Source: a virus (lineage: Duplodnaviria; Caudoviricetes). From it: DNA of 31,906 nt. This document shows, piece by piece, positions 2,853-17,182 of the stretch (within the stretch, counting starts at the first letter, position 1; each line of letters begins with the position of its first letter). The stretch covers positions 1 through 31,906 of the IMG/VR virus record IMGVR_UViG_3300020533_000014. The stretch is one strand, 5' to 3'. A program made the position numbers and the translations under genes. The notes below the pieces were generated by a model. It was not told where the DNA came from, did no database searches, and was given only the letters and a program-made list of their open reading frames with translations.

Positions 2853-4141
2853 AGTGCGTCTGGCTTCTCGTAACGGAAGCTCTGGTGCTTCGGGTTAAAC
2901 TTGAATGGGATGTCCGAGTGGTTCGATCCACGACGAGACTTCCTCACCTTAACAAATAGCTTGAAGTCGTTAATCTTGGGGTTCCTGCGGTCAAGGATGA
3001 GAACTTCATCGGCATTCTCGGCCAGTCCGTTGGAGTCCTTTAGATGGTGAAGCTCTGCCTGTGAGTCGTAGACAGACTGCCTGTTCAGCTGGACGCAACC
3101 GAGGATCGGAATGTCCAGCTCCTTGGCAAGTGCCTTGGTATGCACAGCCACAAGTTCAAGCTCCCTAGCCCTGCTGTCCTGCTTCTTGGTATCGACGCTG
3201 ACCTTGCCGAGTAGATCGATGACGAGGAGCTTGCACCCCTTACGCTTCAGCCTTCTGGCCTCAGCCCTGATCTCGTTGACCGACCATGTCGGGCGATCCA
3301 TCACCACCAGCGGGAGTTCCCGCATCTCGTTCGCAACGGAGTCCAGCGTTGCCAGCTGATCTGGCGTAATGCTTCCAAGTGTTCTCAGCTCATCCGTGCT
3401 GAACCTCTCGGACAGTGCGATCATACGCTCGGCAATGTCACCAGCCGTAAGCTCCATCGAAATATACCCGACCTTGTTGCCGTTCTTCAGTGCGTTGTAA
3501 CAAAGCTGAATAGCGAAGGCCGACTTGCCCATGTTGGTAAACCCAGCAAGCAGGATCAGGTGCCCGTTGGTCAGCCCGCCGATACAATGATCCAGCTCCG
3601 AGTACCCAGTGGGCAGACCAGAGTAGGTAGCCCCAGTCCTGATAAGGTCTCTTGCCTTCTGGGTTACCGAGTGGGCTGCATCCCCGATCTCAACTCCCTT
3701 GGATCTCCCGAGGCTGGTTGTGTTGGTATACTCCTCCATCGATGCCGACACTTCGGCTGATGGTGCCCCATCTTTAATCAGTCGCAGAGAGTTCTCAGCT
3801 GCAACATACATCGAACGCAGTCTGGCCATCTCCACTAGCCTGTCCTCGAAGGAAGCTAGGTGCTTTGCAGTTGGGACAAGATCCTTGGTCGCAAGCTGTC
3901 CAACGAAGTGGGTCATCATCTGACGCTCACCATTCTTCAGCTCGCCAACCAACAGCACTGGATCGGCGGGTGCGCCCTTGGCACCGAGCCTGACCATCAA
4001 AGAGTGGAGCTGCTTGGAGACTGGATTGCCGAACAGGTCGGAAGACCAGCCACAGATTTCCTTATGAACATCTGGATCGGACATTGCGGTTGCAAGGACA
4101 CGACCCTCGATCTCTGAGTCAAACATGGCGAAGTCTTTCAT
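2849..4141 (-). CDS. dnaB: Replicative DnaB-family helicase
   Basis: N-terminal E-RVL motif, Walker A GFTNMGKS, SMEL, Walker B LLVID, KALAKELDIP, QLNR and KSRRG arginine finger. Confidence 0.93.
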   Translation of the reverse strand: MKDFAMFDSEIEGRVLATAMSDPDVHKEICGWSSDLFGNPVSKQLHSLMVRLGAKGAPADPVLLVGELKNGERQMMTHFVGQLATKDLVPTAKHLASFEDRLVEMARLRSMYVAAENSLRLIKDGAPSAEVSASMEEYTNTTSLGRSKGVEIGDAAHSVTQKARDLIRTGATYSGLPTGYSELDHCIGGLTNGHLILLAGFTNMGKSAFAIQLCYNALKNGNKVGYISMELTAGDIAERMIALSERFSTDELRTLGSITPDQLATLDSVANEMRELPLVVMDRPTWSVNEIRAEARRLKRKGCKLLVIDLLGKVSVDTKKQDSRARELELVAVHTKALAKELDIPILGCVQLNRQSVYDSQAELHHLKDSNGLAENADEVLILDRRNPKINDFKLFVKVRKSRRGSNHSDIPFKFNPKHQSFRYEKPDAL

Positions 4142-4497
4142 CGGTATACCAGTGCGTACTTGTGGGAATTAGCGAACGCTTCCGCATCCTTACGGCTGTG
4201 AAAGAACACATCGATCACGGGGAATTTCCCACCACTTGCTTTCCTGCTGATCACAGCAGAACCCGTGTCGTGAACCTGACGGGTACCAATGCCGTCGATA
4301 TAGATCCAGTTCCCGTAACCAAAGACCCGAGGGTCAGCTGCAACTGAGATGCCCTCCTTGAGCGTGTAGCCAGAGGCACTCTTCAGTCTTCGAGTGTATG
4401 AATCCTCACCACGATGATAGGTTGTTAGCCTGACCTTGATCGGGTCTGCGTTGCTGATGCAAACACTTAAGAACAATGCAGTTAATGCTTTATCCAT
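4138..4497 (-). CDS. 3D-domain (MltA-like lytic transglycosylase) protein with signal-peptide-like N-terminus
   Basis: TTY...SASG...VAADP...G-WIYIDGIG...HDTG...IDVF; three conserved Asp residues. Confidence 0.85.
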   Translation of the reverse strand: MDKALTALFLSVCISNADPIKVRLTTYHRGEDSYTRRLKSASGYTLKEGISVAADPRVFGYGNWIYIDGIGTRQVHDTGSAVISRKASGGKFPVIDVFFHSRKDAEAFANSHKYALVYR

Positions 4498-4857: not shown

Positions 4858-5016
4858 TTAGTACTTCCTAGAGGCAGCTGCGTTATCCACTAGGTTGGGA
4901 TAGGGTCTGCCAGCAGCCTTAGCCTTGGCCTTTGCATAGGCTTTGGCTTTAGGCGAGAGCTTGTTTCCAAGCCTCTTGCCAGCAGCTTCCTTTTCCCAGA
5001 ATGGTTTATCTTTCAT
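4858..5016 (-). CDS. Small basic phage protein (52 aa, not in ORF track)
   Basis: MKDKPFWEKEAAGKRLGNKLSPKAKAYAKAKAKAAGRPYPNLVDNAAASRKY; TAATG overlap with the upstream stop. Confidence 0.75.
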   Translation of the reverse strand: MKDKPFWEKEAAGKRLGNKLSPKAKAYAKAKAKAAGRPYPNLVDNAAASRKY

Positions 5017-5273
5017 TAAAAGATATCACCACCCGAGACGGCACCGCCCACATCGGTGAGTGTAATCGACAACATCTTGTTGCCGTTCTTATCGTCCCGA
5101 ACCCAGCAAGCAGCTTTGTACTTGCCAGCAGGGATCTCAATCGCCTCGTCCACCCACTTCTCTCCATCCTTCTTGCGAGGGCTGGCGAACTTAGGTGCCT
5201 TCGGGTTTTCTTCTGCCCGTTTGTTTCCAAACAGGTTTAGCTTGATGCCTTTGACTTGCGTTTCCGTGGCCAT
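5016..5273 (-). CDS. Putative small ssDNA-binding protein (85 aa)
   Basis: LF-NK...NPKAPKF...Y-AACW...G-K-LSI with a short DIF tail; GAAAGGA Shine-Dalgarno before the ATG at 5273; lies next to SSAP and exonuclease. Confidence 0.55.
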   Translation of the reverse strand: MATETQVKGIKLNLFGNKRAEENPKAPKFASPRKKDGEKWVDEAIEIPAGKYKAACWVRDDKNGNKMLSITLTDVGGAVSGGDIF

Positions 5274-5953
5274 GTTTTCTGTCCTTTCGTGCGATCTTCG
5301 ATTTGTTTGTATGCAGAATGGAAGCGCAAGATCGCTTTCCACGCCTCCATCTGCGGGGTTAAGTCCTCAAAGTTTCTTTCCTCAATGTCGTTCTCGTACC
5401 CGATACGAAGTAACTTCACTGCCTCAATGTCCTCGTCGAACGGGTGGCAGTCCTCGTAGAGCATCTTGTAACCAGCCATCTGCAGTTCGTACTGGGGCTT
5501 CAGGGATGAGCTGGTCTTGAAGTCAACCAGCACCAGCCTCCCCTGCTTATCCCGAGCGATAAGGTCTACAGTTCCACCGAAGCCGTGCTTATCACTGGCA
5601 AGCTGAAGCTCGCAGTGGATGCGATCCAGACCGCTCTTCCACCACCACTTCTTAAATCCCTCGATCATCTCCTCGGCACACTCGACCTCGTCTTTGGCAC
5701 ACAGGCTGAAGTCGCACTTGAATCCATCTAGGAAACCGTGGGTACCGAAGTGGAATATCGATCCGATCCTGCGCTTCTTACCACCATCTTTCTCGAGGCA
5801 CTTACCTTTCTTGCCTAGCCCAAACGCCCAAGGCACCAGCTGGGGAATGGCTATATGCTTTGCGATTATCGAAGTAACAGACGGCAGGATATCCCCGCCC
5901 TTGTTCTTGTACTTCTGGTGTGGCTCGTCGAGATCCAGTTTAATTGTCTTCAT
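5237..5953 (-). CDS. PD-(D/E)XK exonuclease (recombination-associated, RecB/Cas4-like fold)
   Basis: LPSVTSII, G-IFH, FGGTVDL, LVDFKTS and LQMAGY motifs. Confidence 0.85.
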   Translation of the reverse strand: MKTIKLDLDEPHQKYKNKGGDILPSVTSIIAKHIAIPQLVPWAFGLGKKGKCLEKDGGKKRRIGSIFHFGTHGFLDGFKCDFSLCAKDEVECAEEMIEGFKKWWWKSGLDRIHCELQLASDKHGFGGTVDLIARDKQGRLVLVDFKTSSSLKPQYELQMAGYKMLYEDCHPFDEDIEAVKLLRIGYENDIEERNFEDLTPQMEAWKAILRFHSAYKQIEDRTKGQKTWPRKRKSKASS

Positions 5954-6030
5954 AATCCTTTAGCTACAATGACTAAGAAAATAATCATTACAGCTGCCTC
6001 CATTGCTAATACTTGGGTTTCGTAGTCCAT
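5950..6030 (-). CDS. Tiny hydrophobic peptide (26 aa)
   Basis: MDYETQVLAMEAAVMIIFLVIVAKGL; ATGA overlap with the exonuclease start. Confidence 0.45.
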   Translation of the reverse strand: MDYETQVLAMEAAVMIIFLVIVAKGL

Positions 6031-6047
6031 ATCCTTAAGGGGATAGG

Positions 6048-6215
6048 TTATTTACACTTGCGTCTGCTTGGCAGACGCTTCTTACCCGAAGAGGTCTTCT
6101 TCGGTTGTTTGGTATGAATGTTCTTAATAGCCCAATCCCAGTTCTTTTTAGAGACACGAACATCCCTTGGTTCACCGTATGGGCTAGTCTTCCATTCTCC
6201 AAACTTGGCCGTCAT
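6048..6215 (-). CDS. Small basic protein (55 aa)
   Basis: MTAKFGEWKTSPYGEPRDVRVSKKNWDWAIK...RRKCK; ATGA overlap with the SSAP stop. Confidence 0.6.
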   Translation of the reverse strand: MTAKFGEWKTSPYGEPRDVRVSKKNWDWAIKNIHTKQPKKTSSGKKRLPSRRKCK

Positions 6216-6886
6216 TTTACTTCGCCCTTGATTCTTTCAACCACGAGCTTGCCGTGCTTGACGATGGCCGAGAGCAGTGCGGTATCAGCCACACCAATAA
6301 AAGGCTCATCGATCTTGTCGGTCTTCGCTGGAACAGCTGGGAAGCTGATGCCAAGTTTTTTACAAGATGAAGAATTAAGGGATCTCGCAAACTTGTAGAG
6401 ATCGCCATCGGTCAGCTGGTGCTGGTCGCACATCTTGATGAATGCCTCGGTCAATTCGCCAAGGCTTTCAGTGGACTTGTTCTTAACCAGCTCCCGCTCC
6501 AGAGAGAAGATGTTATCTGACTTCTGAGGGGTCACGGTCTTCGCTTTGTCGAGTTCCTCGGAGGAGCAAAGCCCATCCTCGATCCCGATATTAAGGAAGC
6601 CCAACGCACGACCCACTGCAGAGGTCTCTGCCACCTCTAGGGCAGCTGCCCCAGCAATCATACCAGTCCACTTGGATTGGCTGTGCCCGATAAAGTAACG
6701 CTCGGGGTGTTCAACATTCGGAGTCACCTTCGCCCGCATAAAGACATGGCTGGCTGGATCTCCAATAATCTCAGTCTCGATCCTACCGTTCGGATACATC
6801 GCATGAAACCCGCTCACTCGTGTATGCACCATCACATACGCCTTCCCCTTCATATCGATTGCCTTTAATCCACCTACTTCTTTCAT
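6212..6886 (-). CDS. Single-strand annealing protein (Rad52/Sak-like)
   Basis: KGK-YV-V..RV..F...YPNGRI-TEI and ALEVAETSAVGRALG; AGAAAGGA Shine-Dalgarno. Confidence 0.72.
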   Translation of the reverse strand: MKEVGGLKAIDMKGKAYVMVHTRVSGFHAMYPNGRIETEIIGDPASHVFMRAKVTPNVEHPERYFIGHSQSKWTGMIAGAAALEVAETSAVGRALGFLNIGIEDGLCSSEELDKAKTVTPQKSDNIFSLERELVKNKSTESLGELTEAFIKMCDQHQLTDGDLYKFARSLNSSSCKKLGISFPAVPAKTDKIDEPFIGVADTALLSAIVKHGKLVVERIKGEVK

Positions 6887-7265: not shown

Positions 7266-7532
7266 ATGAAAACAAGAGCTACAAAAACCGTCACTGGTTC
7301 TGCCAGTGGTGCGTTAGCGTATAATATCGGGCTGAGATGCCCGAAGGAAATGAAACAAGCAGCCGAGCGGATGAGTAAGTTACTCGACCGTTCGGAGAAC
7401 AGCATCATCATCGAAAGCGTGATGGCCATCGACGAGATGTCCCGCTCCCTCACCGAGAGCAATCACCCGCCGAAGATGGTGTTCATGTTGAGGCAGGCAA
7501 TGACCTACAACGCCAAACAAGCGTCCAGCTAA
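7266..7532 (+). CDS. Arc/ribbon-helix-helix family repressor
   Basis: IGLRCPKEMKQAAERMSKLLDRSENSII matches the Arc-like pattern LR-P...A....RS-N; directly abuts the integrase (TAA-ATG). Confidence 0.75.
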   Translation: MKTRATKTVTGSASGALAYNIGLRCPKEMKQAAERMSKLLDRSENSIIIESVMAIDEMSRSLTESNHPPKMVFMLRQAMTYNAKQASS

Positions 7533-8528
7533 ATGGCATCGTTGGTCAAGAGGGGGCAGTTCTGGTATGTATACTATCGTATTGACGGTAGGCAGTCGGG
7601 TGTATCCACCTTCCAAGCTGGAAGGTCACCCAACGAGGTAGCCAGAGCAGTCCTCGAAAAGTATCGAATGATGGAGGGGTGTAACAAGCATGGCCTCCCA
7701 TACGTTGACAATTCAGCCAACGTATCAGACATGATCGGGCAGTATTGGGAGTCGAAGCCTTCCCTTGCCCTGTATACAGCAACTAAGAAGAAAGCCGTGC
7801 TGGACAGACTGTGCCAGCATATGGGCGTAAAGAAGGTCACATCCATTGGGGTGCATGAATGTGATCAGTTCATGTCTACCTGCCTCTCGCACCTGCACGA
7901 TAACAGCAAAGAGCTTTATCGTGCTTTAATTTCCAGCCTGTGGACATGGGGTATCAAGAGGAGCCTTGCCACAAAGAACCCTTGGTCTGAGATCCAATTC
8001 AAGAGAACTCCTAAGACCCCGAGGCGGTGCCTCAAGAAGGAGGAGATCGATGCGCTGATAGGTCATGCCAAGGGATCTGTACTCCTAGCCATCCTGTTGG
8101 GGCTTTACGCTGGGGCACGGGTTGGTGACTGCGTGAACCTTTACGGTGAGGACATCGACTTTAATTCCAAGACGATTATCTTCCGCAGGAGAAAGGGTAG
8201 CCGTGAGGGTTCCCCGAAAGTACAGGAGCTGCCACTTCACCCAGTACTCGAGGATGTCTTCTCCAAGATGGATCTCGTCAGCAACGCTAGGCTTATACCC
8301 CTTCGGGCGAACCACCTTGGAACCAAGGTAGCCAACGCCATGAAGGAGGCTGGGATCAATACGACCCACCATTATCTTCGTCACACCTTTATCTCCATGA
8401 TGGCAGAGAAGCAGGCTGGTATGGCACAGATCAGTCAGCTAGCTGGTCACTCCAGCTGGGCTATCACGAAGCGGTATACCCACATTTCCAAGGACTCCCT
8501 TCGGGATGCGATTGGGATACTACAATGA
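7533..8528 (+). CDS. int: Tyrosine integrase
   Basis: N-terminal arm-binding-like segment, GARVGD (R), HYLRH (HxxR), LAGHS (H) and TKRYTH (Y). Confidence 0.93.
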   Translation: MASLVKRGQFWYVYYRIDGRQSGVSTFQAGRSPNEVARAVLEKYRMMEGCNKHGLPYVDNSANVSDMIGQYWESKPSLALYTATKKKAVLDRLCQHMGVKKVTSIGVHECDQFMSTCLSHLHDNSKELYRALISSLWTWGIKRSLATKNPWSEIQFKRTPKTPRRCLKKEEIDALIGHAKGSVLLAILLGLYAGARVGDCVNLYGEDIDFNSKTIIFRRRKGSREGSPKVQELPLHPVLEDVFSKMDLVSNARLIPLRANHLGTKVANAMKEAGINTTHHYLRHTFISMMAEKQAGMAQISQLAGHSSWAITKRYTHISKDSLRDAIGILQ

Positions 8529-8845
8529 GAGCTATCCTGATCGACCCGCTTGCCACTCCAGCCATCTCAGAGATTGAGGTTAAGGGGCATCTTGAGGAGA
8601 TTCAGAAGATCATAGGAGGGTACTTAGCCCCGATTAAAATCAGCAGTACGGAAGTTCTTTTTGTGGATGAGGAGTGGCTGATCAAGGATAAGTCCAAGCG
8701 GTTTGGCGGTGCCTTTAGGATTGGCGATCACGGGCTGGGTGGGAAGGGGATTATCTTTGGGGTAAAGAACGGGGATCATTGCAGCACGAAACTTGGGCTA
8801 CTTGAAGTTTCCTCGATGATCACAACATCCAATAAACCAGCCTGA
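8525..8845 (+). CDS. DUF3846-like protein
   Basis: AILIDP...LEEIQKIIGGY...LFVDEE...G-GII-G; ATGA overlap with the int stop. Confidence 0.7.
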   Translation: MRAILIDPLATPAISEIEVKGHLEEIQKIIGGYLAPIKISSTEVLFVDEEWLIKDKSKRFGGAFRIGDHGLGGKGIIFGVKNGDHCSTKLGLLEVSSMITTSNKPA

Positions 8846-8969
8846 AATTTGTTAACCTAATGTTAACGATGCCTGCAAAAAGAGGTGATTAATAGTGACA
8901 AATATCAACAGTAACAGACAGAAGCAGACACTCCATCATTCTGATCATAAACCTAAATGGACTTTTACT
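8846..8969. other. Candidate attP region
   Basis: Only sizeable AT-rich non-coding gap near int. Contains GTTAAC-N5-GTTAAC (8851-8867) and AACCTAA(A)TG twice (8854, 8950). Confidence 0.4.
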
Positions 8970-9284: not shown

Positions 9285-9564
9285 GAGACTAGCACTTATC
9301 TTATTACTCAGCATTGGTTCGCTTTCTTTTGCTCAGGAAATTATCCCCAATAACTTCGGTGGCTACCTTTCCGTTGATAAAGAGGATGGCCTTGAGGAGC
9401 GTTCCGTTTTTATCTCCAGCCCTAGACACTCCTATATTGGGGAGATGGATGAAGACGGAGACTTCGTTGCGCTTGGACGCAGGGGTGGGGAGACTTGTTT
9501 CGGCAAGCGTGTTGGTCGTAACGCAGTTATTGTTCTGCGTACACCTGTTGACCAAACCGAATAG
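9283..9564 (+). CDS. Secreted/periplasmic moron protein (93 aa)
   Basis: Sec-type signal MRLALILLLSIGSLSFA|QE; has its own promoter; 3' end overlaps the giant gene by 38 nt. Confidence 0.7.
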   Translation: MRLALILLLSIGSLSFAQEIIPNNFGGYLSVDKEDGLEERSVFISSPRHSYIGEMDEDGDFVALGRRGGETCFGKRVGRNAVIVLRTPVDQTE

Positions 9565-12500
9565 CGTCACCTTTCATCTCTCTCTTGGCTGGCTTGTAGA
9601 CGGCCACATTCCCAGACAGGAGTGCCCTTGCGTTATCCATGCTCACACCCTGCTCCTTAAGAATCCTCATCACTTCTCCCCTGCTCACACCCAGCTTCAT
9701 GGCTGCACTGATGATTCCAGACGTTTCGTTGAAGATCTCCTTACGGGAGCTTCTCATCTGCCTGTAGGCTTCCAGCCTTGCCTCGTTGCTCACGTTGCTC
9801 CTGTCGTAGTAGGCAGCTGTAAAGATCCCAGTCGCATCGTTGAGCCTGTTGCTGAACTTGCGGGCAGTGAAGCCCAAGCTCTGGCGAGGATCTAAAGTGA
9901 CAACTCGTTGACCAGTTAATGTTGCAATCGTCTCCAAGGCTGGGTCGTAGGCACGGCCAGTCTGGGTCACCTGACCAGTAAGACCCCTGTAGACCCTGAC
10001 GGATGAAACAACGGTTCCGATATTGAAGGCATCAAACATGTGGGCAGATACGGCAGCTGCCCTCGAGGCTAGGTCTGCCTCTGGGTTGTAGACCCTGCCA
10101 CCCGTAGTTCCTTTGGTGTTGCGTGAGATATCAAGGATCTTGCTGGCTAGGATCTGCTCACCGTACAGGGGCTGGAAGGCTGTCTTCACAGACTCCAGTA
10201 GCTTCTGATCCCAAGTTCCGTCCATCTTCATAAGGGCAATGATCGGGTCACGGAAGTAGTTGTACGGATCGACGTAGGACAGGTTGACCTGATTGACGTT
10301 ACCCTTATCGTCACGGCCAAGGTACAGCTTGGTAGCATACTTATCCCAAGGTGCATCCAGCTTGCGGATTGCCTGATCCTCATCGTCATCGATGCCCATC
10401 GCAGATGCGATGCCAGCTGCGACTGCGCTGAATCCAATGCTGGCCATCATGGTTCCTGCCAGCCTGTAGGCACCAGCCTGACGGATGGCAGGGTTGTCGC
10501 TTCTCAGCTCATCGTTGATTGTGCCGAGAAGATTGTAGCCAGTCCTTACCACCTCGAGGGGGAAGCTGATGAAAGCACCGACGAAAGGTTGGGAGCGGAG
10601 GACGTTACCAAGGCGAGGGATACGGCTGTAGGTAGGCAGGAGGTTAAGAACTTTATCAGCTGCCATAGGCTCCAGCTTGGACAGGGGCTGGGTTGGGTAA
10701 GCCTTTCTGAGTCTGGACAGCTCGACCTCGAAGGCCACGATCTTAGGGATGGCATCACCCAGCTGGTAAAGGTTGGTGGCACCACGGCCAATAGCCTTTA
10801 GCCCTTTAGTAACATGGTTGTCTAGGAAGTCGGCAGCTGTGCTTACGTTCGCATCCTTGAAGTATGACTCCATCTCGTTGGCGAATACGCTTTGCCCGAG
10901 GATGCCCAGCCGAGTCAGCTTGGCGTTGTAGTCACGGAACTCTTTGCTCTTGTTAATCCCGAGCTGAGTACCAGCGGAAGGCAGTGCCAGCGTCTTGAGC
11001 TTGTTGAGTGCGGTGATCCCGTCGGGCGAGAAGATGTATCCGTTGGCGACTAGGAACGATCCGTTGCCGAGCAAGTTCCTGACCTGCGTCTGCACGGACA
11101 GCACGGTCTTGGCGAACTTGGAGAACCCGTTGGCCTTAAGGTAAAGCTCGCCCATCTTACCCAAGAAGTCCTGAGCCTTGGCACGACCACCAAAGGTATT
11201 GCGAAGTGCTGTGGCGATCTCCTCGCTGGTGTAGACATCGTTGCTCATACCATCGATGAACATGTTCAGAGGGCTGGCAGTCCTGCTTCCGTCCGATACC
11301 AGCTTGGTCGTGAACCCAGTGCGTGGAGTGGCGAAGAAGATCTTATTCATCCCAGCGTCCCGCATTCCTTTGAGCATGTTGTGTGCCTCGAGAAACCCAG
11401 ACATCTTCTGGACAGACTTAAGGAAGTTAACCCGAGGATCTTTGATCTCACCCCACAGCATGCGGATCTCCTCGGGGATATTCTTTCTGGCTGTGATGAT
11501 GGAAAGGTCTTTAGTCAGCCCGCTACCGATCTGGCCGAAGGGGCTGTCGGTTTCAGGCGAGGCAAGGTATTCGATCTGACCATCAACCTCGGCCTTTGTT
11601 ACGCCACCACTGCGAGCCTTGGTTAGGCCAGCCTGATAGTCGGCCTGATAGGTTCCCGAGTTAGGGTTGATGGCCACCTCGCCACGGGCAAGGCTTTGCT
11701 CCTTGGCGTACGCATTTGCGTACTTGTTGTGGAGGTAGGATGTGACAGTGGTAACGAGCTTGTTCTGCACCTGCTTCGGTAGGGTGTTGAAAGGATTCTT
11801 ATAGTTGGGGTTCTCCCACTTCTCGTAGCTGCGGTTTAGGTAGACACCCTTGTTCGCCTCGAGGACGGGCTTGAGATCTTCGGAGATTGCGCCAGATCGG
11901 AGCAGGTCTTGCGTCAGGCTGTCGATCAGGTTGCGGGCATTGCCAACGGCAGAGGCAACATCGGTTGGGAGTTTAGCCCTAGCTAGGGGATTCTGTAGAC
12001 CCTCGTTGATTCTAGCGATCTCCACCTCTGGCAACTGATCGAGTGACTTGCCGTAGGAACGCTTCACCGCTGCTTCGATATCTGACACTGCGTTCTGTGC
12101 CCGAAGCATCTTCTCGTTGACGTTGAATCCACGCTGCTCGGTCATGCGGAAGATGTCGTATGGCAACGCACCGCCAGTGCGGAGCTGTTGACGGCCAAAG
12201 GAGATGACGGGTTCTAGGATCTGTCTGGCTTGCTCACCCCGTGTAGAGAACAAGAAGTCACCCCTGTTGCCCTCAACTGCGCCCTTAACGAATGCAGTGT
12301 TGCCAATAAGAATAGCCTCGTCAGCTGAGACAACTGGGTTCCCGTTCTCCTTGTTATAAAAATAGCTGTGACGTTGTGGGTCAAATCCAACCTGCTGATA
12401 GTTTTCAAGTAGCCCAGCTGGCGCATTTGCCATCGGAATGTACTTACCCTCGACGGTTGCAAGTGGAGTCTTCGAGTATCCTTGGGCTATTGAAAGAGTT

Positions 12501-15500
12501 ACCTTCTCTGACGCATTAAAGAATCTCGCATCTTTTACTGCAGCGATCCTGTCGTATCCAATGACCTTACCAACCCTGCTCTTGCCTTCTGCTTGGTTGT
12601 GAACGGTCACAACATAGTTGCCTGTCCTGTTATAAGACGGGATATCAATGCGAAGTCCGACAGGAGTTCCCTCCTCAAGAGTTCTCGCAACTCCGTACAT
12701 CCCCTGCTTGCCAGCGTCGAGAGATGACCTTGCCTCATCATCCGTGAGGATCGGGATGGATGTTACTGGACGGGCTGGCTTCTGTTCCTCGGAGATCCTG
12801 TTCAGTTCTTCTCTGGATATCCTGCCCTCAAAGAAGTCGTTAGCTGCCTGCTGTATTACCTCGTTACGAGGCTGTGCCCCACGAGTGGAGGCTCTTACTT
12901 CTTCGGGTAAAACTTGCTGCGGGTCTCGTCCATCACGGAGAGCGTTTGATCGACTGAGGGCAGTCTGCCTTCTTTCTTCAGCCGCTCGAAGGTCTTGTAC
13001 AATTTCTCTGCGCTGAAGACCTCTGTCTTTGAGGAGCTTGTCTGTTCCGTTGGAGTGTTTGTAGTATTCAATTTTCGCTCCAAGTTCCTTCCAAAGTCCG
13101 ATTTCATATACCCAAGATACTGCCTGTAATTCCGCAACACTCAAGCCAAGTTTATTTGCTGCAAATCTTACAGCCTGCTCTTGAATATCGTACTCTGCGT
13201 CAGTTGGTGCCTGTATAATCTCACCATTTTTGTCGAATACTGTCCCCATCATTCTGTTCCACATTCTGCTAAAGTGAAGATCTACAGTAAGAACATCATA
13301 GATGCCGTTCATGTTTAAGTGATAAGATCCACCCTTTCGACCAAGTATGTATGATCCGTACTTGATATCACTTTGCTTGCCCTTCACGTTTTCGTTGTAT
13401 TCTCGAAGCTCTTTAACTGTGTGCTTAGAAAGCAGCCAATCAGCAGCCCCCTTCTCCCCCTTGTCGGCAACAAGTTTATTAATGCGCTCCATATAAATCT
13501 CAACAATCTTGCCACGAACAGTCCACCCCTTCCCGTTCTTCTGCCTTGGCATAACTGGGAACTGTTGTTTCGAGGCTTCCCATATTCGCATGGTACTTAA
13601 AGTTTCTTGCTTCGGGTTTTGGCTAAATGAATTTGCAACCATCATTGCCTTAATTAGAACCATCCGCTCTTTTCTGTTGCCTATAGACTCTGGGTATAGC
13701 TGGTTCAGATCAGACTCCATTTGCTCGATATCTGCCGAATACCAAGTCATCCCCGCATCTTCCTGCTGAAGCTGATACGAAGTTTCAGGCCAAATGTTTA
13801 CAAGGAACTGAGCCATTCTAACATCGGCTGGAGTGTCCTTGGTTAGTGGCTCTTGGATTCGCTCAATACTTCTTTGCTGAAGGAAGGTGGCTACTTCTTT
13901 TACTGAAGGCTTCTCAATCCTTACACCATCACGCCTTAACGGCACCGACTCGACGGAGACTGCGCCCCGTGTCGAGGCTACTACTTCTGGCGACCCTGCT
14001 TCTTGAAGGCTTCTGCCTTGAGACTGGATTCGTCTCGCTTGGACAGCTGGGTTGACGGCTCGTCTAACGGACTCGACCGCTGTCCGAAGACTCCCTTTTC
14101 GTCCAGCGAGGTAATCAACTTTTCCACCCAGCTCTTGTAGTCTTCCCCTGTCTGAGGGCGTGTAAAGGCCACTGGCTCGTAGGTCTCTGACTGCTGGGGC
14201 TGTGTCGATTGTTTGCCCAGCGGAGATGTCGAAGATTGCATCTTGTTTGCCATTTTCAGCAACATAAAGCGCATCGGTCTTATTGTCGAGAACGAAAGAA
14301 ATATCATAAACAAACTGACGCTGATCTACGGGTAGTGGCTCGTTGTTTTCTGTGGTCTTCATCCATCCACCAAAGTACGCACCCGCCCCATCAACATTCG
14401 CCAACCTCTGGCCAATACCGAAAGCCCTGAAGATATCGTCGTTGCTGAGAAGGTAGGATCTGAAAGCCTTGATGCCCTCTTCCCTGCTCATGTTTACGGG
14501 CATAATACCCTCTGTGTTCTTGGACGGTGCTACAATGTAACCAGTCGTTGGAACCCTGAATGATACAGGGTCAACAGTAAATCCATCTGGGTTGTTCCTT
14601 GTGTAATCAAACAGCTGCTCGTACTTGGCTAGGCCACGGATCGAAGTCTGTGGCTCCTCGTTAATGCCAGCACGGCCAGCCCGAACAGCCTGCTCTACCC
14701 TTGTCCGTAATCCCTTAAACCTGTCACCTTGGTCTAGGAATGATCTGAACTCTAGGTTCAGCCTTTCCCCGTGACCCGTGTATCGAAGGAACCTGTCGAG
14801 CAGGTTTCTGAAGGCACGACCAGCCTTGTCCATTACACTGTTCTGCTCGCTGAGTCCCTTAGCCCACTGGTCGTTTGTCCAAGCCAGACGCTCGGAGAAG
14901 AACTCCTGTACTGACTCCATGACACGAGGACTCACCTCGGCCTTCAGTCCACCAAACTCATCAAACAAAGCACCAGTCCTAGACTCAGTCTCGGCCTTCC
15001 ATAGACCCCTGATCTGAGCCTGCAAACCAGCTGGGAGTGTGTCCCAGAAAGCATGGCCAAGCTCGTGGATCATTTCCCTGCGAGCCATAGGCATCGTGGC
15101 CAGCTTGTCCGACAAGAAGATCATGGCCTTCCTGCCGTCCGAAGCCCGCTTGTAGTAGGCAACAGCACCCTTTGGAACCTGACCCGATTCAATTAAGGGA
15201 GTGATGTCACCCACCTCAAAAGTGATGGCATTGCGTAGGGCTGGAGATGAGATGCTGTTCCACAGGTTCTGGAAACCTTGGACAAGCGAGAGCTTCTGAG
15301 ATGCGCTTGGTGGCGTGTTGCGCTCGGAAGCTAGGATGTATCCCTCTGGTCTTGCCGTTAGTCCACGAAGCTCAGTCTCCCGCATCCCGATCATACGATT
15401 AAGTCGGGCGACCCTCTGCGAGGTCTCCTGCTTATTCTCGATCTTGTTACCCTCTGAGTCGTACCTGATAACTTCTCTAGCCGTGTTAGGATCGTACTCG

Positions 15501-17182
15501 GTTGTGCCAGCGTTAGGGTTTTCGCCGACAAGGATCTGCCTTGCGAGTACACCCTCACGGATCTTGTAAAGCCGTTCGATCTCATTGCTAAGAACAACCT
15601 GACGAGCCACGCCACGATCATCTCGTGACACGGATTCTGGGATGATCTGATTGTCTGGGAGAAGTGTTTGATCTGTAACCCTGCCAAGCTGCATCTCACG
15701 CTGGGCTTCTGCGATCAACCTGCGATCCATCTCCTGCTCTGTCTCTAGGCCAAACTCTTTTGCGATACTGCTGGTTGGAGAGATGATGCGACCCGTGAAC
15801 TGGGATCGTGTCGCAGTCCTCGGATCTGCTGGGCTAGTGATTGGGTTTAGAAGGGGGCTGTCATCGGTTACGTCACGAACCCTGACTGGCTCACCCGTCC
15901 TGAACTCTGCCTCCCACAAAAGACCTTGAGGGGTATGGAAAGTAAATGTCTCTGTATTGTTGCCATCCTCATCCTGACTAACGCTACGACCAAGGGGTAC
16001 GCTATTGATCGCAGGGTTCTGGCCAATGTCTGGCACTTCTCCAGCAAGCCGATCCCCGAACACAGTCTTGGGGGTTGAGGTTGTCTCAGTTTCCCCAGTC
16101 TCAATATCAATCCTCTGCTGTGTGGTTGTGTTAGCGTTTCTTGCTGCCTCAGTAATCTGTGTCAGTCGTTCTGGAGTTAGTGATGCAGCTAGGTCTGCTT
16201 TACTCTTAAGCTCGTCAGATAGTTTCTCAGCATAGAAAGCCTCGTTATCACGGGTGATTGCATTCACACCGCCACCGATCAGTCCTCCAGTTACGAGTCC
16301 TACCGCACCAGACTGCAGTGCCCCATCCATGATTCCCCTGTTCGGATCGTACCCAGCAAACTTAGAGGCAACGAAGTTGTTGGCCATCTGGGAACCAGTC
16401 TCCTGCAAGAACTCTTCGGTAGCCCCCTCGACCACACCACGAAGAATGGATCTCTTGGCAATTCCAGCCGTCAATCTTCCAGCAAGACCACCAAGGGGTA
16501 TTGCCTCCGTAAGTCCGATAGCACCGCCAGCTAGAGCTGATGCCCTCGAAGTAAACTCGTTTGCCCCAGCCTGCCTTGCCTCCTCGTAGGTAGACCCAGC
16601 GTTTGTTGCAGCTCCAAGCACAGCTGCTGTACCAAGTCCGACAGCACCAACGGCTGCTTCAGGCGCAGCTGCTGCTGCAGCTGCAGCTACACCAAAGAAC
16701 CCCAGCGCACTTCCAAGACCTTGGGGCAGTAGGGTATTAATGAAGTCATTGCGTAGGCGAGGATCTTCGATGCCAGTTGTCTGCTTAACACTCTCGTCGA
16801 TATCCTGTGCGATCTTATAGATATCACGCTCAGTGACTGGAGTGTTGTCATCGTAGTTTCCGAGAGACTCTCCAATGGCTTGCTGGGCTAGGGCAGCTGC
16901 CTTGAAGGCTGATGTGAAAGTTCCAGATGCGCCCTTGTAGATATTGCCAAGGAATGCAGATCCACGCTCAACCGCACCGAGGTCACCCAGCGCATCCTGC
17001 GATGCAATCTTTACAAACTCATCAGAAGCCTGACCAACTTCCTTTTCATCTCTAGGCTCAACCTGCGTGTAATACTCCTGAACGTACTGGGAGTACTTGT
17101 TGATCGTATCTACTTTACCCTCGGTGGGTAATTCTTCGTACCCTACTTGGGCTTTTATGTCATCCCAAGGTGTGATCGCCAT
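9527..17182 (-). CDS. Giant polyvalent internal virion/ejection protein (2551 aa) with zincin protease and effector modules
   Basis: Last gene of the ejection cluster; Gly/Ala-rich hydrophobic N-terminus; HELGH706-710 plus E760FFSE; HhH-GPD-like K1283/D1301; helical C-terminus. Confidence 0.85.
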   Translation of the reverse strand: MAITPWDDIKAQVGYEELPTEGKVDTINKYSQYVQEYYTQVEPRDEKEVGQASDEFVKIASQDALGDLGAVERGSAFLGNIYKGASGTFTSAFKAAALAQQAIGESLGNYDDNTPVTERDIYKIAQDIDESVKQTTGIEDPRLRNDFINTLLPQGLGSALGFFGVAAAAAAAAPEAAVGAVGLGTAAVLGAATNAGSTYEEARQAGANEFTSRASALAGGAIGLTEAIPLGGLAGRLTAGIAKRSILRGVVEGATEEFLQETGSQMANNFVASKFAGYDPNRGIMDGALQSGAVGLVTGGLIGGGVNAITRDNEAFYAEKLSDELKSKADLAASLTPERLTQITEAARNANTTTQQRIDIETGETETTSTPKTVFGDRLAGEVPDIGQNPAINSVPLGRSVSQDEDGNNTETFTFHTPQGLLWEAEFRTGEPVRVRDVTDDSPLLNPITSPADPRTATRSQFTGRIISPTSSIAKEFGLETEQEMDRRLIAEAQREMQLGRVTDQTLLPDNQIIPESVSRDDRGVARQVVLSNEIERLYKIREGVLARQILVGENPNAGTTEYDPNTAREVIRYDSEGNKIENKQETSQRVARLNRMIGMRETELRGLTARPEGYILASERNTPPSASQKLSLVQGFQNLWNSISSPALRNAITFEVGDITPLIESGQVPKGAVAYYKRASDGRKAMIFLSDKLATMPMARREMIHELGHAFWDTLPAGLQAQIRGLWKAETESRTGALFDEFGGLKAEVSPRVMESVQEFFSERLAWTNDQWAKGLSEQNSVMDKAGRAFRNLLDRFLRYTGHGERLNLEFRSFLDQGDRFKGLRTRVEQAVRAGRAGINEEPQTSIRGLAKYEQLFDYTRNNPDGFTVDPVSFRVPTTGYIVAPSKNTEGIMPVNMSREEGIKAFRSYLLSNDDIFRAFGIGQRLANVDGAGAYFGGWMKTTENNEPLPVDQRQFVYDISFVLDNKTDALYVAENGKQDAIFDISAGQTIDTAPAVRDLRASGLYTPSDRGRLQELGGKVDYLAGRKGSLRTAVESVRRAVNPAVQARRIQSQGRSLQEAGSPEVVASTRGAVSVESVPLRRDGVRIEKPSVKEVATFLQQRSIERIQEPLTKDTPADVRMAQFLVNIWPETSYQLQQEDAGMTWYSADIEQMESDLNQLYPESIGNRKERMVLIKAMMVANSFSQNPKQETLSTMRIWEASKQQFPVMPRQKNGKGWTVRGKIVEIYMERINKLVADKGEKGAADWLLSKHTVKELREYNENVKGKQSDIKYGSYILGRKGGSYHLNMNGIYDVLTVDLHFSRMWNRMMGTVFDKNGEIIQAPTDAEYDIQEQAVRFAANKLGLSVAELQAVSWVYEIGLWKELGAKIEYYKHSNGTDKLLKDRGLQRREIVQDLRAAEERRQTALSRSNALRDGRDPQQVLPEEVRASTRGAQPRNEVIQQAANDFFEGRISREELNRISEEQKPARPVTSIPILTDDEARSSLDAGKQGMYGVARTLEEGTPVGLRIDIPSYNRTGNYVVTVHNQAEGKSRVGKVIGYDRIAAVKDARFFNASEKVTLSIAQGYSKTPLATVEGKYIPMANAPAGLLENYQQVGFDPQRHSYFYNKENGNPVVSADEAILIGNTAFVKGAVEGNRGDFLFSTRGEQARQILEPVISFGRQQLRTGGALPYDIFRMTEQRGFNVNEKMLRAQNAVSDIEAAVKRSYGKSLDQLPEVEIARINEGLQNPLARAKLPTDVASAVGNARNLIDSLTQDLLRSGAISEDLKPVLEANKGVYLNRSYEKWENPNYKNPFNTLPKQVQNKLVTTVTSYLHNKYANAYAKEQSLARGEVAINPNSGTYQADYQAGLTKARSGGVTKAEVDGQIEYLASPETDSPFGQIGSGLTKDLSIITARKNIPEEIRMLWGEIKDPRVNFLKSVQKMSGFLEAHNMLKGMRDAGMNKIFFATPRTGFTTKLVSDGSRTASPLNMFIDGMSNDVYTSEEIATALRNTFGGRAKAQDFLGKMGELYLKANGFSKFAKTVLSVQTQVRNLLGNGSFLVANGYIFSPDGITALNKLKTLALPSAGTQLGINKSKEFRDYNAKLTRLGILGQSVFANEMESYFKDANVSTAADFLDNHVTKGLKAIGRGATNLYQLGDAIPKIVAFEVELSRLRKAYPTQPLSKLEPMAADKVLNLLPTYSRIPRLGNVLRSQPFVGAFISFPLEVVRTGYNLLGTINDELRSDNPAIRQAGAYRLAGTMMASIGFSAVAAGIASAMGIDDDEDQAIRKLDAPWDKYATKLYLGRDDKGNVNQVNLSYVDPYNYFRDPIIALMKMDGTWDQKLLESVKTAFQPLYGEQILASKILDISRNTKGTTGGRVYNPEADLASRAAAVSAHMFDAFNIGTVVSSVRVYRGLTGQVTQTGRAYDPALETIATLTGQRVVTLDPRQSLGFTARKFSNRLNDATGIFTAAYYDRSNVSNEARLEAYRQMRSSRKEIFNETSGIISAAMKLGVSRGEVMRILKEQGVSMDNARALLSGNVAVYKPAKREMKGDAIRFGQQVYAEQ

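Follow-up and report, generated by a model that had tools for sequence, protein, structure and literature searches.

Why should one short peptide recur at the domain borders of a giant phage protein? The virus record IMGVR_UViG_3300020533_000014, 31.9 kb long and about 75% complete (its whole stretch, positions 1 to 31,906, is hereafter the window), encodes a 2551-amino-acid (aa) protein, P0001, which joins several unrelated domains in one large chain, as polyvalent proteins do. Its predicted zincin metallopeptidase is followed by four copies of an S-[T/I]-R-G motif, which bound three cargo modules and a constant C-terminal scaffold. We found that cargo is exchanged at this motif among close relatives and that the motif accompanies the protease family in distant ones. 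We consider it reasonably probable from these comparisons that P0001 is a polyvalent protein whose own predicted zincin cuts at the S-[T/I]-R-G junctions. The features of the gene are as follows.

9527..17182, minus strand: P0001, polyvalent-type protein of 2551 aa, last gene in the virion gene block
15323..17182, minus strand: N-terminal region, aa 1-620, with a Gly/Ala-rich hydrophobic stretch, conserved in every close homologue
14708..15322, minus strand: predicted zincin metallopeptidase, aa ~621-825; HELGH at nt 15053-15067, E760 at nt 14903-14905
14633..14644, minus strand: junction motif 1, T-SIRG, aa 847; S and R invariant, homology break here
13976..14644, minus strand: module 1, aa 847-1069, 24.5 kDa; predicted alpha/beta domain and low-complexity tail
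13961..14022, minus strand: shared module-tail stretch of ~60 nt, possible crossover; 85.5% identity by blastn of the window against L005/L013
13964..13975, minus strand: junction motif 2, A-STRG, aa 1070; module switch here in P0015/P0016/L007
12890..13975, minus strand: module 2, aa 1070-1431, 41.6 kDa; DUF7178-related
12878..12889, minus strand: junction motif 3, A-STRG, aa 1432; position checked, homology break
12248..12889, minus strand: module 3, aa 1432-1645, 23.4 kDa; mycobacteriophage L5 gp82-like
12236..12247, minus strand: junction motif 4, F-STRG, aa 1646; position checked, homology break
9527..12247, minus strand: constant C-terminal scaffold, aa 1646-2551, 99.5 kDa; phrog_22602 virion structural protein, E 3e-40

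The junction motif is conserved as a peptide

The four motif copies, the HELGH at 706 and the EFFSE at 760 lie where the original prediction had placed them, and the motif spacings are 223, 362 and 214 aa as it gave them. Its chance figure of about 0.1 copy per protein was recomputed as 0.115, a value that holds for a fixed pattern, this one having been picked after the fact. The repeat within P0001 alone does not beat chance, because some 4-mer occurred at least three times in 65% of 500 shuffles of the protein; it is weak evidence from P0001 alone and strong evidence together with the relatives.

As had been claimed, the codons differ in each of the four copies. Across 25 distinct junction contexts, five Ser codons (including AGC), five Arg codons and four Gly codons were used, indicating that the peptide, not the DNA, is conserved, since the codons vary freely. 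No DNA repeat family mapped to the four junctions, and a conserved DNA recombination site at each cassette border, as in integrons and shufflons, was not seen. The linker at motif 1 varied in length and sequence among homologues while S and R stayed fixed. A consensus of [ED]-[VP]-x-[AFPL]-S-[TVI]-R-G was obtained from 54 contexts, which were gathered with a fitted pattern that itself fixes S and R; in 12 proteins this pattern occurred 44 times in 12,550 central residues versus 0 times in 19,252 residues outside.

The composition of the modules was compared by GC and by GC at third codon positions (GC3). The protease (0.548/0.612) and the scaffold (0.547/0.667) were alike in GC, and lower values were found in module 1 (0.508/0.493), module 2 (0.459/0.450) and module 3 (0.503/0.514). 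The suggestion that modules 2 and 3 are more AT-rich than the scaffold thus stands clearly for module 2, while for module 3, as for module 1, the shift is mild.

Close relatives exchange modules at the motif

We examined 16 full-length homologues, 58-98% identical over the protease. The N-terminal/protease part and the scaffold were constant in the 16, and the cargo between them varied from one to three modules per homologue, giving 12 module orders with the motif bounding the modules. The cargo included variants of DUF7178, one module with a weak match to GNAT, a second HExxH domain and uncharacterised modules of 93-158 aa. Module 1 was absent from P0008-P0013, and module 3 was replaced or lost in P0004-7, P0010, P0012 and P0014-16. 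A conserved peptide stood at the module borders, as in self-cleaving polyproteins, with two exceptions, P0013 and P0054.

If the motif is a true junction, homologues should gain or lose modules at it, and alignment to P0001 bore this out: in nine relatives, 19 of 21 internal homology-block ends lay within -4 to +6 residues of a motif Ser, although these events are not independent, and the remaining two were N-terminal. Only 4.8% of aa 620-1700 lies within that distance. Other homologue pairs showed further block ends inside diverged copies of one module type. The motif also flanked both sides of module remnants of 7, 16 and 17 residues. In the relative L005, DNA identity was 94-97% on both flanks and broke at the junctions, and blastn revealed a 60-nt tail common to different modules, which could serve as crossover homology.

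Two cassette versions were found in the same waters. At least half of the window's sequence words were present in 18 of the 22 metagenome runs listed, from freshwater and lake samples, and 11 runs may be its source. Contigs from three of the four lake runs examined contained both the window's version (depth 8-11) and a second version (depth 24-51), which lacks 12902-14634 and carries an additional 483 letters at 12217/12227. Such coexistence of two versions of a phage would mean that the injected cargo varies within the population.

The second HExxH domain occurs as swappable cargo in P0004 (aa 1563), P0013 (aa 1785), P0015 (aa 1710) and P0016 (aa 1712), and this travelling domain may be an effector protease. 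In L004, positions 954-1793 hold three consecutive units with STRG at their borders, namely a module resembling GNAT, a remnant of 17 aa and a module of 106 aa (phrog_839, E 2.5e-8); their GC3 of 0.26-0.31 is far under the scaffold's 0.65.

The motif accompanies the protease family in distant relatives

The zincin region of P0001 carries an HExxH (HELGH706) and a downstream Glu (E760), as polyvalent zincins do, and HELGH together with E[FW]FSE was retained in 16 of the 16 full-length homologues. Its match to Peptidase_M78 was weak (E 0.035). In a search for the zincin fold, a three-stranded sheet with two active-site helices, 3dl1 gave Z 4.9 (root-mean-square deviation 3.6, 92 residues aligned) and 2l0r gave Z 4.4, neither above unrelated entries, and Foldseek of the protease/module-1 model against the PDB returned no match at E<=0.001. 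No protease homologue was found in cultured phages.

The protease domain as query retrieved 92 proteins, of which we analysed the 68 distant ones of at least 1400 aa (26-43% identical over the protease match). Their central regions contained S.RG 41 times versus 17.8 expected, and a pattern fixed beforehand 21 times versus 4.8. The form [FY]S.R[GS], picked after inspection of 45 of the 68, occurred 30 times versus 1.6 expected; in the 23 proteins unseen when it was chosen, it occurred 15 times versus 0.56. It was also raised upstream of the protease (8 versus 1.2 expected), and three control patterns showed no enrichment in the distant proteins. The motif is thus enriched in relatives found via the protease alone, and the free codons support the earlier claim that selection acts on the peptide.

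Distant proteins tend to repeat their own version of the motif, for example F-SKRGQ three times in P0121. Blind k-mer counting within one distant protein at a time did not recover such motifs. The scaffold is common to 13 of the 68; 12 of these carry [FYM]-[AS]-x-R, mostly F-A-R-R, at most 60 residues before it; this pattern was picked with the proteins in view, and shuffles gave a mean of 1.6 and a maximum of 6. It was present in eight of nine scaffold relatives with no cargo between protease and scaffold. A scar left by module swaps would not explain a motif kept in relatives without cargo.

P0054, whose protease is sister to this clade in a quick tree without supports, has an unrelated LPD38 tail and carries F-SMRG/F-SIRG around shared cargo. 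P0022-25/27 share the scaffold at 28% and have other zincins; x-SPAG and [AG]-SRAT flank the indels of these proteins. P0028 has [AILP]-L-[YFA]-S-R at five Pfam domain borders. P0020, placed as sister to this clade by a quick scaffold tree used only for that, lacks HExxH, recognisable cargo and motif, a single case.

Proposed self-processing and its alternatives

In the mechanism that we favour, the chain would be synthesised in one piece, its constant parts would mediate packaging, and it would travel in the virion and enter the host along with the DNA. Its own zincin would cut at each of the four motifs, in the head or after ejection, freeing three cargo proteins and the C-terminal scaffold, and the cargo would act in early host takeover or anti-defence. 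The predicted cut bond probably lies directly before Ser, which invariably opens the motif in this clade and is replaced by Ala in one related subclade. Cargo would be swapped by ordinary recombination between short common stretches near the motif codons, and selection would keep the products whose junction can still be cut. We favour cleavage over a recombination scar because the motif is kept without cargo, the catalytic residues are kept and lineages have their own versions.

A broader reading, which we put forward tentatively and as somewhat less probable than its converse, is that polyvalent proteins are polyproteins whose cleavage follows a code that can be read, every lineage of zincins having its own short junction (A/F-S-T-R-G here; F-A-R-R, [FY]-S-[RK]-R-G and S-P-A-G in relatives), and that the junction doubles as a plug-in point for an injected library of small anti-host proteins, which would vary within a population.

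Several observations weigh against self-processing. A protease of this kind is present in the virion RNA polymerase of phage N4, in ArdC and in TraC1, all of which, according to the available part of PMC5512222, are nevertheless packaged or transferred whole, and other authors, in the parts of their texts at hand, assign such domains to peptidoglycan digestion (10.64898/2026.04.10.717836; 10.1101/2020.03.07.982082). The zincin fold match is weak, with Z below 5 from a model with a predicted local distance difference test (pLDDT) score of 51. The junction between the first module and module 3 in P0013, and that between module 1 and DUF7178 in P0054, have no motif. In 53 of the 68 distant proteins [FY]S.R[GS] is absent centrally, other motifs not having been looked for in them, and the largest distant group, of 31 proteins, has no member with two copies. 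Protease and motif may also co-occur by ancestry alone, because kin share labels. Finally, the modules match only families of unknown function, and no anti-defence function is known for any of them.

The motif might instead be bound and left uncut, as a docking, packaging or unfolding signal for the zincin-like domain or for the head or ejection machinery, with the chain delivered whole. This would account for peptide conservation in flexible linkers and for retention without cargo, and it has a precedent in the N4 polymerase, packaged unprocessed although its metallopeptidase region is needed for encapsidation, as given in the accessible portion of PMC5512222. However, the HExxH and the third-ligand Glu are retained in 16 of 16, and a docking tag need not mark every module border or persist doubled in the 7-, 16- and 17-residue remnants, so we regard this alternative as unlikely. 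Slightly less likely still is cutting by another protease, from the host or from a phage gene outside the incomplete record, with the zincin acting otherwise, for example in peptidoglycan digestion during ejection. Such digestion has been proposed for phi24B gp47 and crAss-like gp65, and prohead proteases cut ejected head proteins in P1 and SPN3US, as far as the partial sources go. Yet neither the head nor the scaffolding-like proteins contain S[TIVAR]R[GKF] (three matches in 7366 aa of 38 other open reading frames, ORFs), the motif differs between protease subclades, and P0020 lacks both protease and motif.

The motif as a recombination junction only, a short in-frame homology for swaps with no role for the peptide, appears to us improbable. 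The breaks of DNA homology at motifs, the 60-nt tail common to different modules, and the exonuclease and tyrosine recombinase genes nearby would fit it. Against it, synonymous positions are free, even from TCN to AGC, no DNA repeat family marks the four junctions, and relatives without cargo retain the motif. Moreover, both motif copies survive in the remnants, and therefore some deletions must have arisen otherwise than by crossover from motif to motif.

Self-processing of polyvalent proteins has been proposed since 2017, and cut sites are absent from the searchable papers. The locus makes the proposal testable, with four exact predicted sites, a catalytic mutant, natural motif variants and predicted fragments of 91.8, 24.5, 41.6, 23.4 and 99.5 kDa. 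If cleavage holds, the motif would tell where giant phage proteins can be divided into candidate early effectors, and the zincin would be a possible site-specific protease; if the code reading also holds, the motif would define a family of sequence-specific proteases and would also resolve giant phage proteins, in their thousands, into candidate effectors against host defence.

Identity of the cargo modules

Module 1 had no Pfam or PHROG match of note; it has a homologue in P0054 (E 8e-15), and a low-confidence model suggests an alpha/beta fold. The protease/module-1 model gave 16 matches at E<=0.001 to uncharacterised viral proteins, several of 121-170 aa, and the matched part would be module 1. 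No free-standing module-1 homologue was found by word search or in cultured phages. Module 2 matched PF23802 (DUF7178) at E 7.8e-6 and 26.4 bits, just below the cut-off of 27, with an Atlas score of 0.96 to DUF7178 clusters, and has homologues in giant proteins of the cultured phages BD1 and DC33, beside ART-PolyVal and an HExxH domain. Module 3 matched PF25735 above the cut-off (E 9e-7, 29.2 bits) and has homologues in Roseobacter phage proteins without HExxH. The family profiles of modules 2 and 3 span 120-206 positions, and a model of the two from a four-row alignment reached pLDDT 33. PDB sequence searches gave no match for modules 1 and 2. An anti-defence role of the cargo is suggested by analogy with the cargo of other polyvalent proteins.

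Three other ideas were set aside. A SAM-lyase (S-adenosylmethionine lyase) assignment was without support, SAM-lyase chains not being among the 50 VIA rows listed and module 1 not aligning with P0036, a distant relative that holds DUF3293 (probability 0.1%); a glycosylase (HhH-GPD) reading of DUF7178 came from motifs only, and PDB sequence searches found nothing; and an L/F-x-Q junction in BD1 gp16 and DC33 gp45 was seen by eye only and is too degenerate to count. The latter phages encode giant LPD22/ART-PolyVal proteins with a module-2 homologue (BD1, L033 3858-12818; DC33, L034 5271-14648).

The Pfam scan of P0001 showed no LPD or ART match, but LPD/ART-PolyVal proteins also contain scaffold and module 2 homologues, and relatives of the scaffold or cargo carry LPD22/23/37/38, ART-PolyVal, GNAT, 2H and GGDEF domains. 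P0036, of 3731 aa, has module 2 and 3 homologues, DUF3293 and an HExxH domain but lacks S-x-R-G; a different motif may mark its junctions. In phage vB_Pun_Y3, scaffold and cargo seemed at first to be naturally split, a case that was rejected: the upstream gene ends in a copy of the beginning of the following one, probably as a result of assembly or duplication. In OR779980.1 (L032 ~7900-8500) sequence of one gene recurs at the end of the 3421-aa gene before it, perhaps a duplication introduced by assembly.

Relation to known systems

Iyer, Burroughs, Anand, de Souza and Aravind (2017; PMC5512222) proposed autoproteolysis by the metallopeptidase and gave unprocessed counter-examples, in the part of their article at hand. 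P0001 resembles their polyvalent proteins as a large virion-block protein joining an HExxH zincin to unrelated domains, and differs in having no LPD/ART Pfam match. The available text names no cleavage site or junction motif, its file-transfer (FTP) alignments, which could show the motif, aside; nor does it report phages of 94-97% DNA identity that swap modules at a constant peptide.

Escherichia coli phage phi24B gp47, likened to P0001 by description and not by sequence, is an LPD-bearing podovirus protein of 2811 aa that contains a metallopeptidase domain, occurs in virions and has been put forward as an ejection protein; unlike the reading given here, its authors propose peptidoglycan digestion, and the accessible part of the preprint reports no processing or junction motif (bioRxiv 10.64898/2026.04.10.717836). 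In crAss-like phages, three virion proteins, one with a zincin, are fused in some cases into virion RNA polymerase polyproteins described as 'likely cleaved', with no cleavage sites given in the available text (10.1101/2020.03.07.982082); P0001 has only a weak N-terminal phrog_2206 match as a sign of RNA polymerase. Phage P1 DdrB and DarA are, in the sources as available, likewise head-packaged, processed anti-restriction proteins, with metallopeptidase autoproteolysis proposed for DdrB, but they show a single cut and no cassette array, and it is the prohead protease that cleaves DarA.

RNA-virus polyproteins similarly have an embedded protease and a repeated junction sequence, but the protease is of another class and the gene order is fixed, not swappable cargo. 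The same analogy is drawn in PMC5512222, in the portion available. Related cases in PMC12810830 and PMC9503650 give no junction motif for such proteins in their accessible text, and a full-text literature search, with most subscription papers outside its scope, found no paper on a junction motif in polyvalent proteins.

Probable virion setting and neighbouring genes

P0001 terminates a block of head, tail-fibre and other virion genes, its neighbours having PHROG matches to major head, tail fibre and tail spike. It is likely carried in the virion, because homologues include a PHROG virion structural family and phi18:3 gp123, detected by virion mass spectrometry; as with polyvalent proteins, it is encoded with virion genes and has homologues in particles. 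The scaffold (last 906 residues) is 25% identical to gp123 of Cellulophaga phage phi18:3, annotated from virion mass spectrometry, and the N-terminal region matched phrog_10691 (E 2e-9) and the virion RNA polymerase family phrog_2206 (E 3e-5, aa 60-365). No prophage relative of P0001 was found in GTDB genomes, and promoter and terminator scans gave chance level only.

7533-8528, plus strand: tyrosine recombinase, PF00589, E 4e-18

Past the giant gene on the opposite strand, 7266-8845 (plus) holds an 88-aa ORF, this recombinase and a DUF3846 gene. An adjacent tyrosine recombinase is also a trait of integron- and shufflon-type cassette systems, but the simpler reading of this one is a lysogeny integrase, not a cassette role. 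The DUF3846 slot looks variable, because homology to four close loci breaks at ~8528-8850. At 5016-6886 (minus), an exonuclease (phrog_298) lies beside a 224-aa ORF (phrog_11717, no known function), which may resemble a single-strand annealing protein; the two could promote the exchange of modules through short homologies. Among the replication genes, 984-1694 and 4138-4497 (minus) encode a 2OG-Fe(II) oxygenase and a 3D-domain protein.

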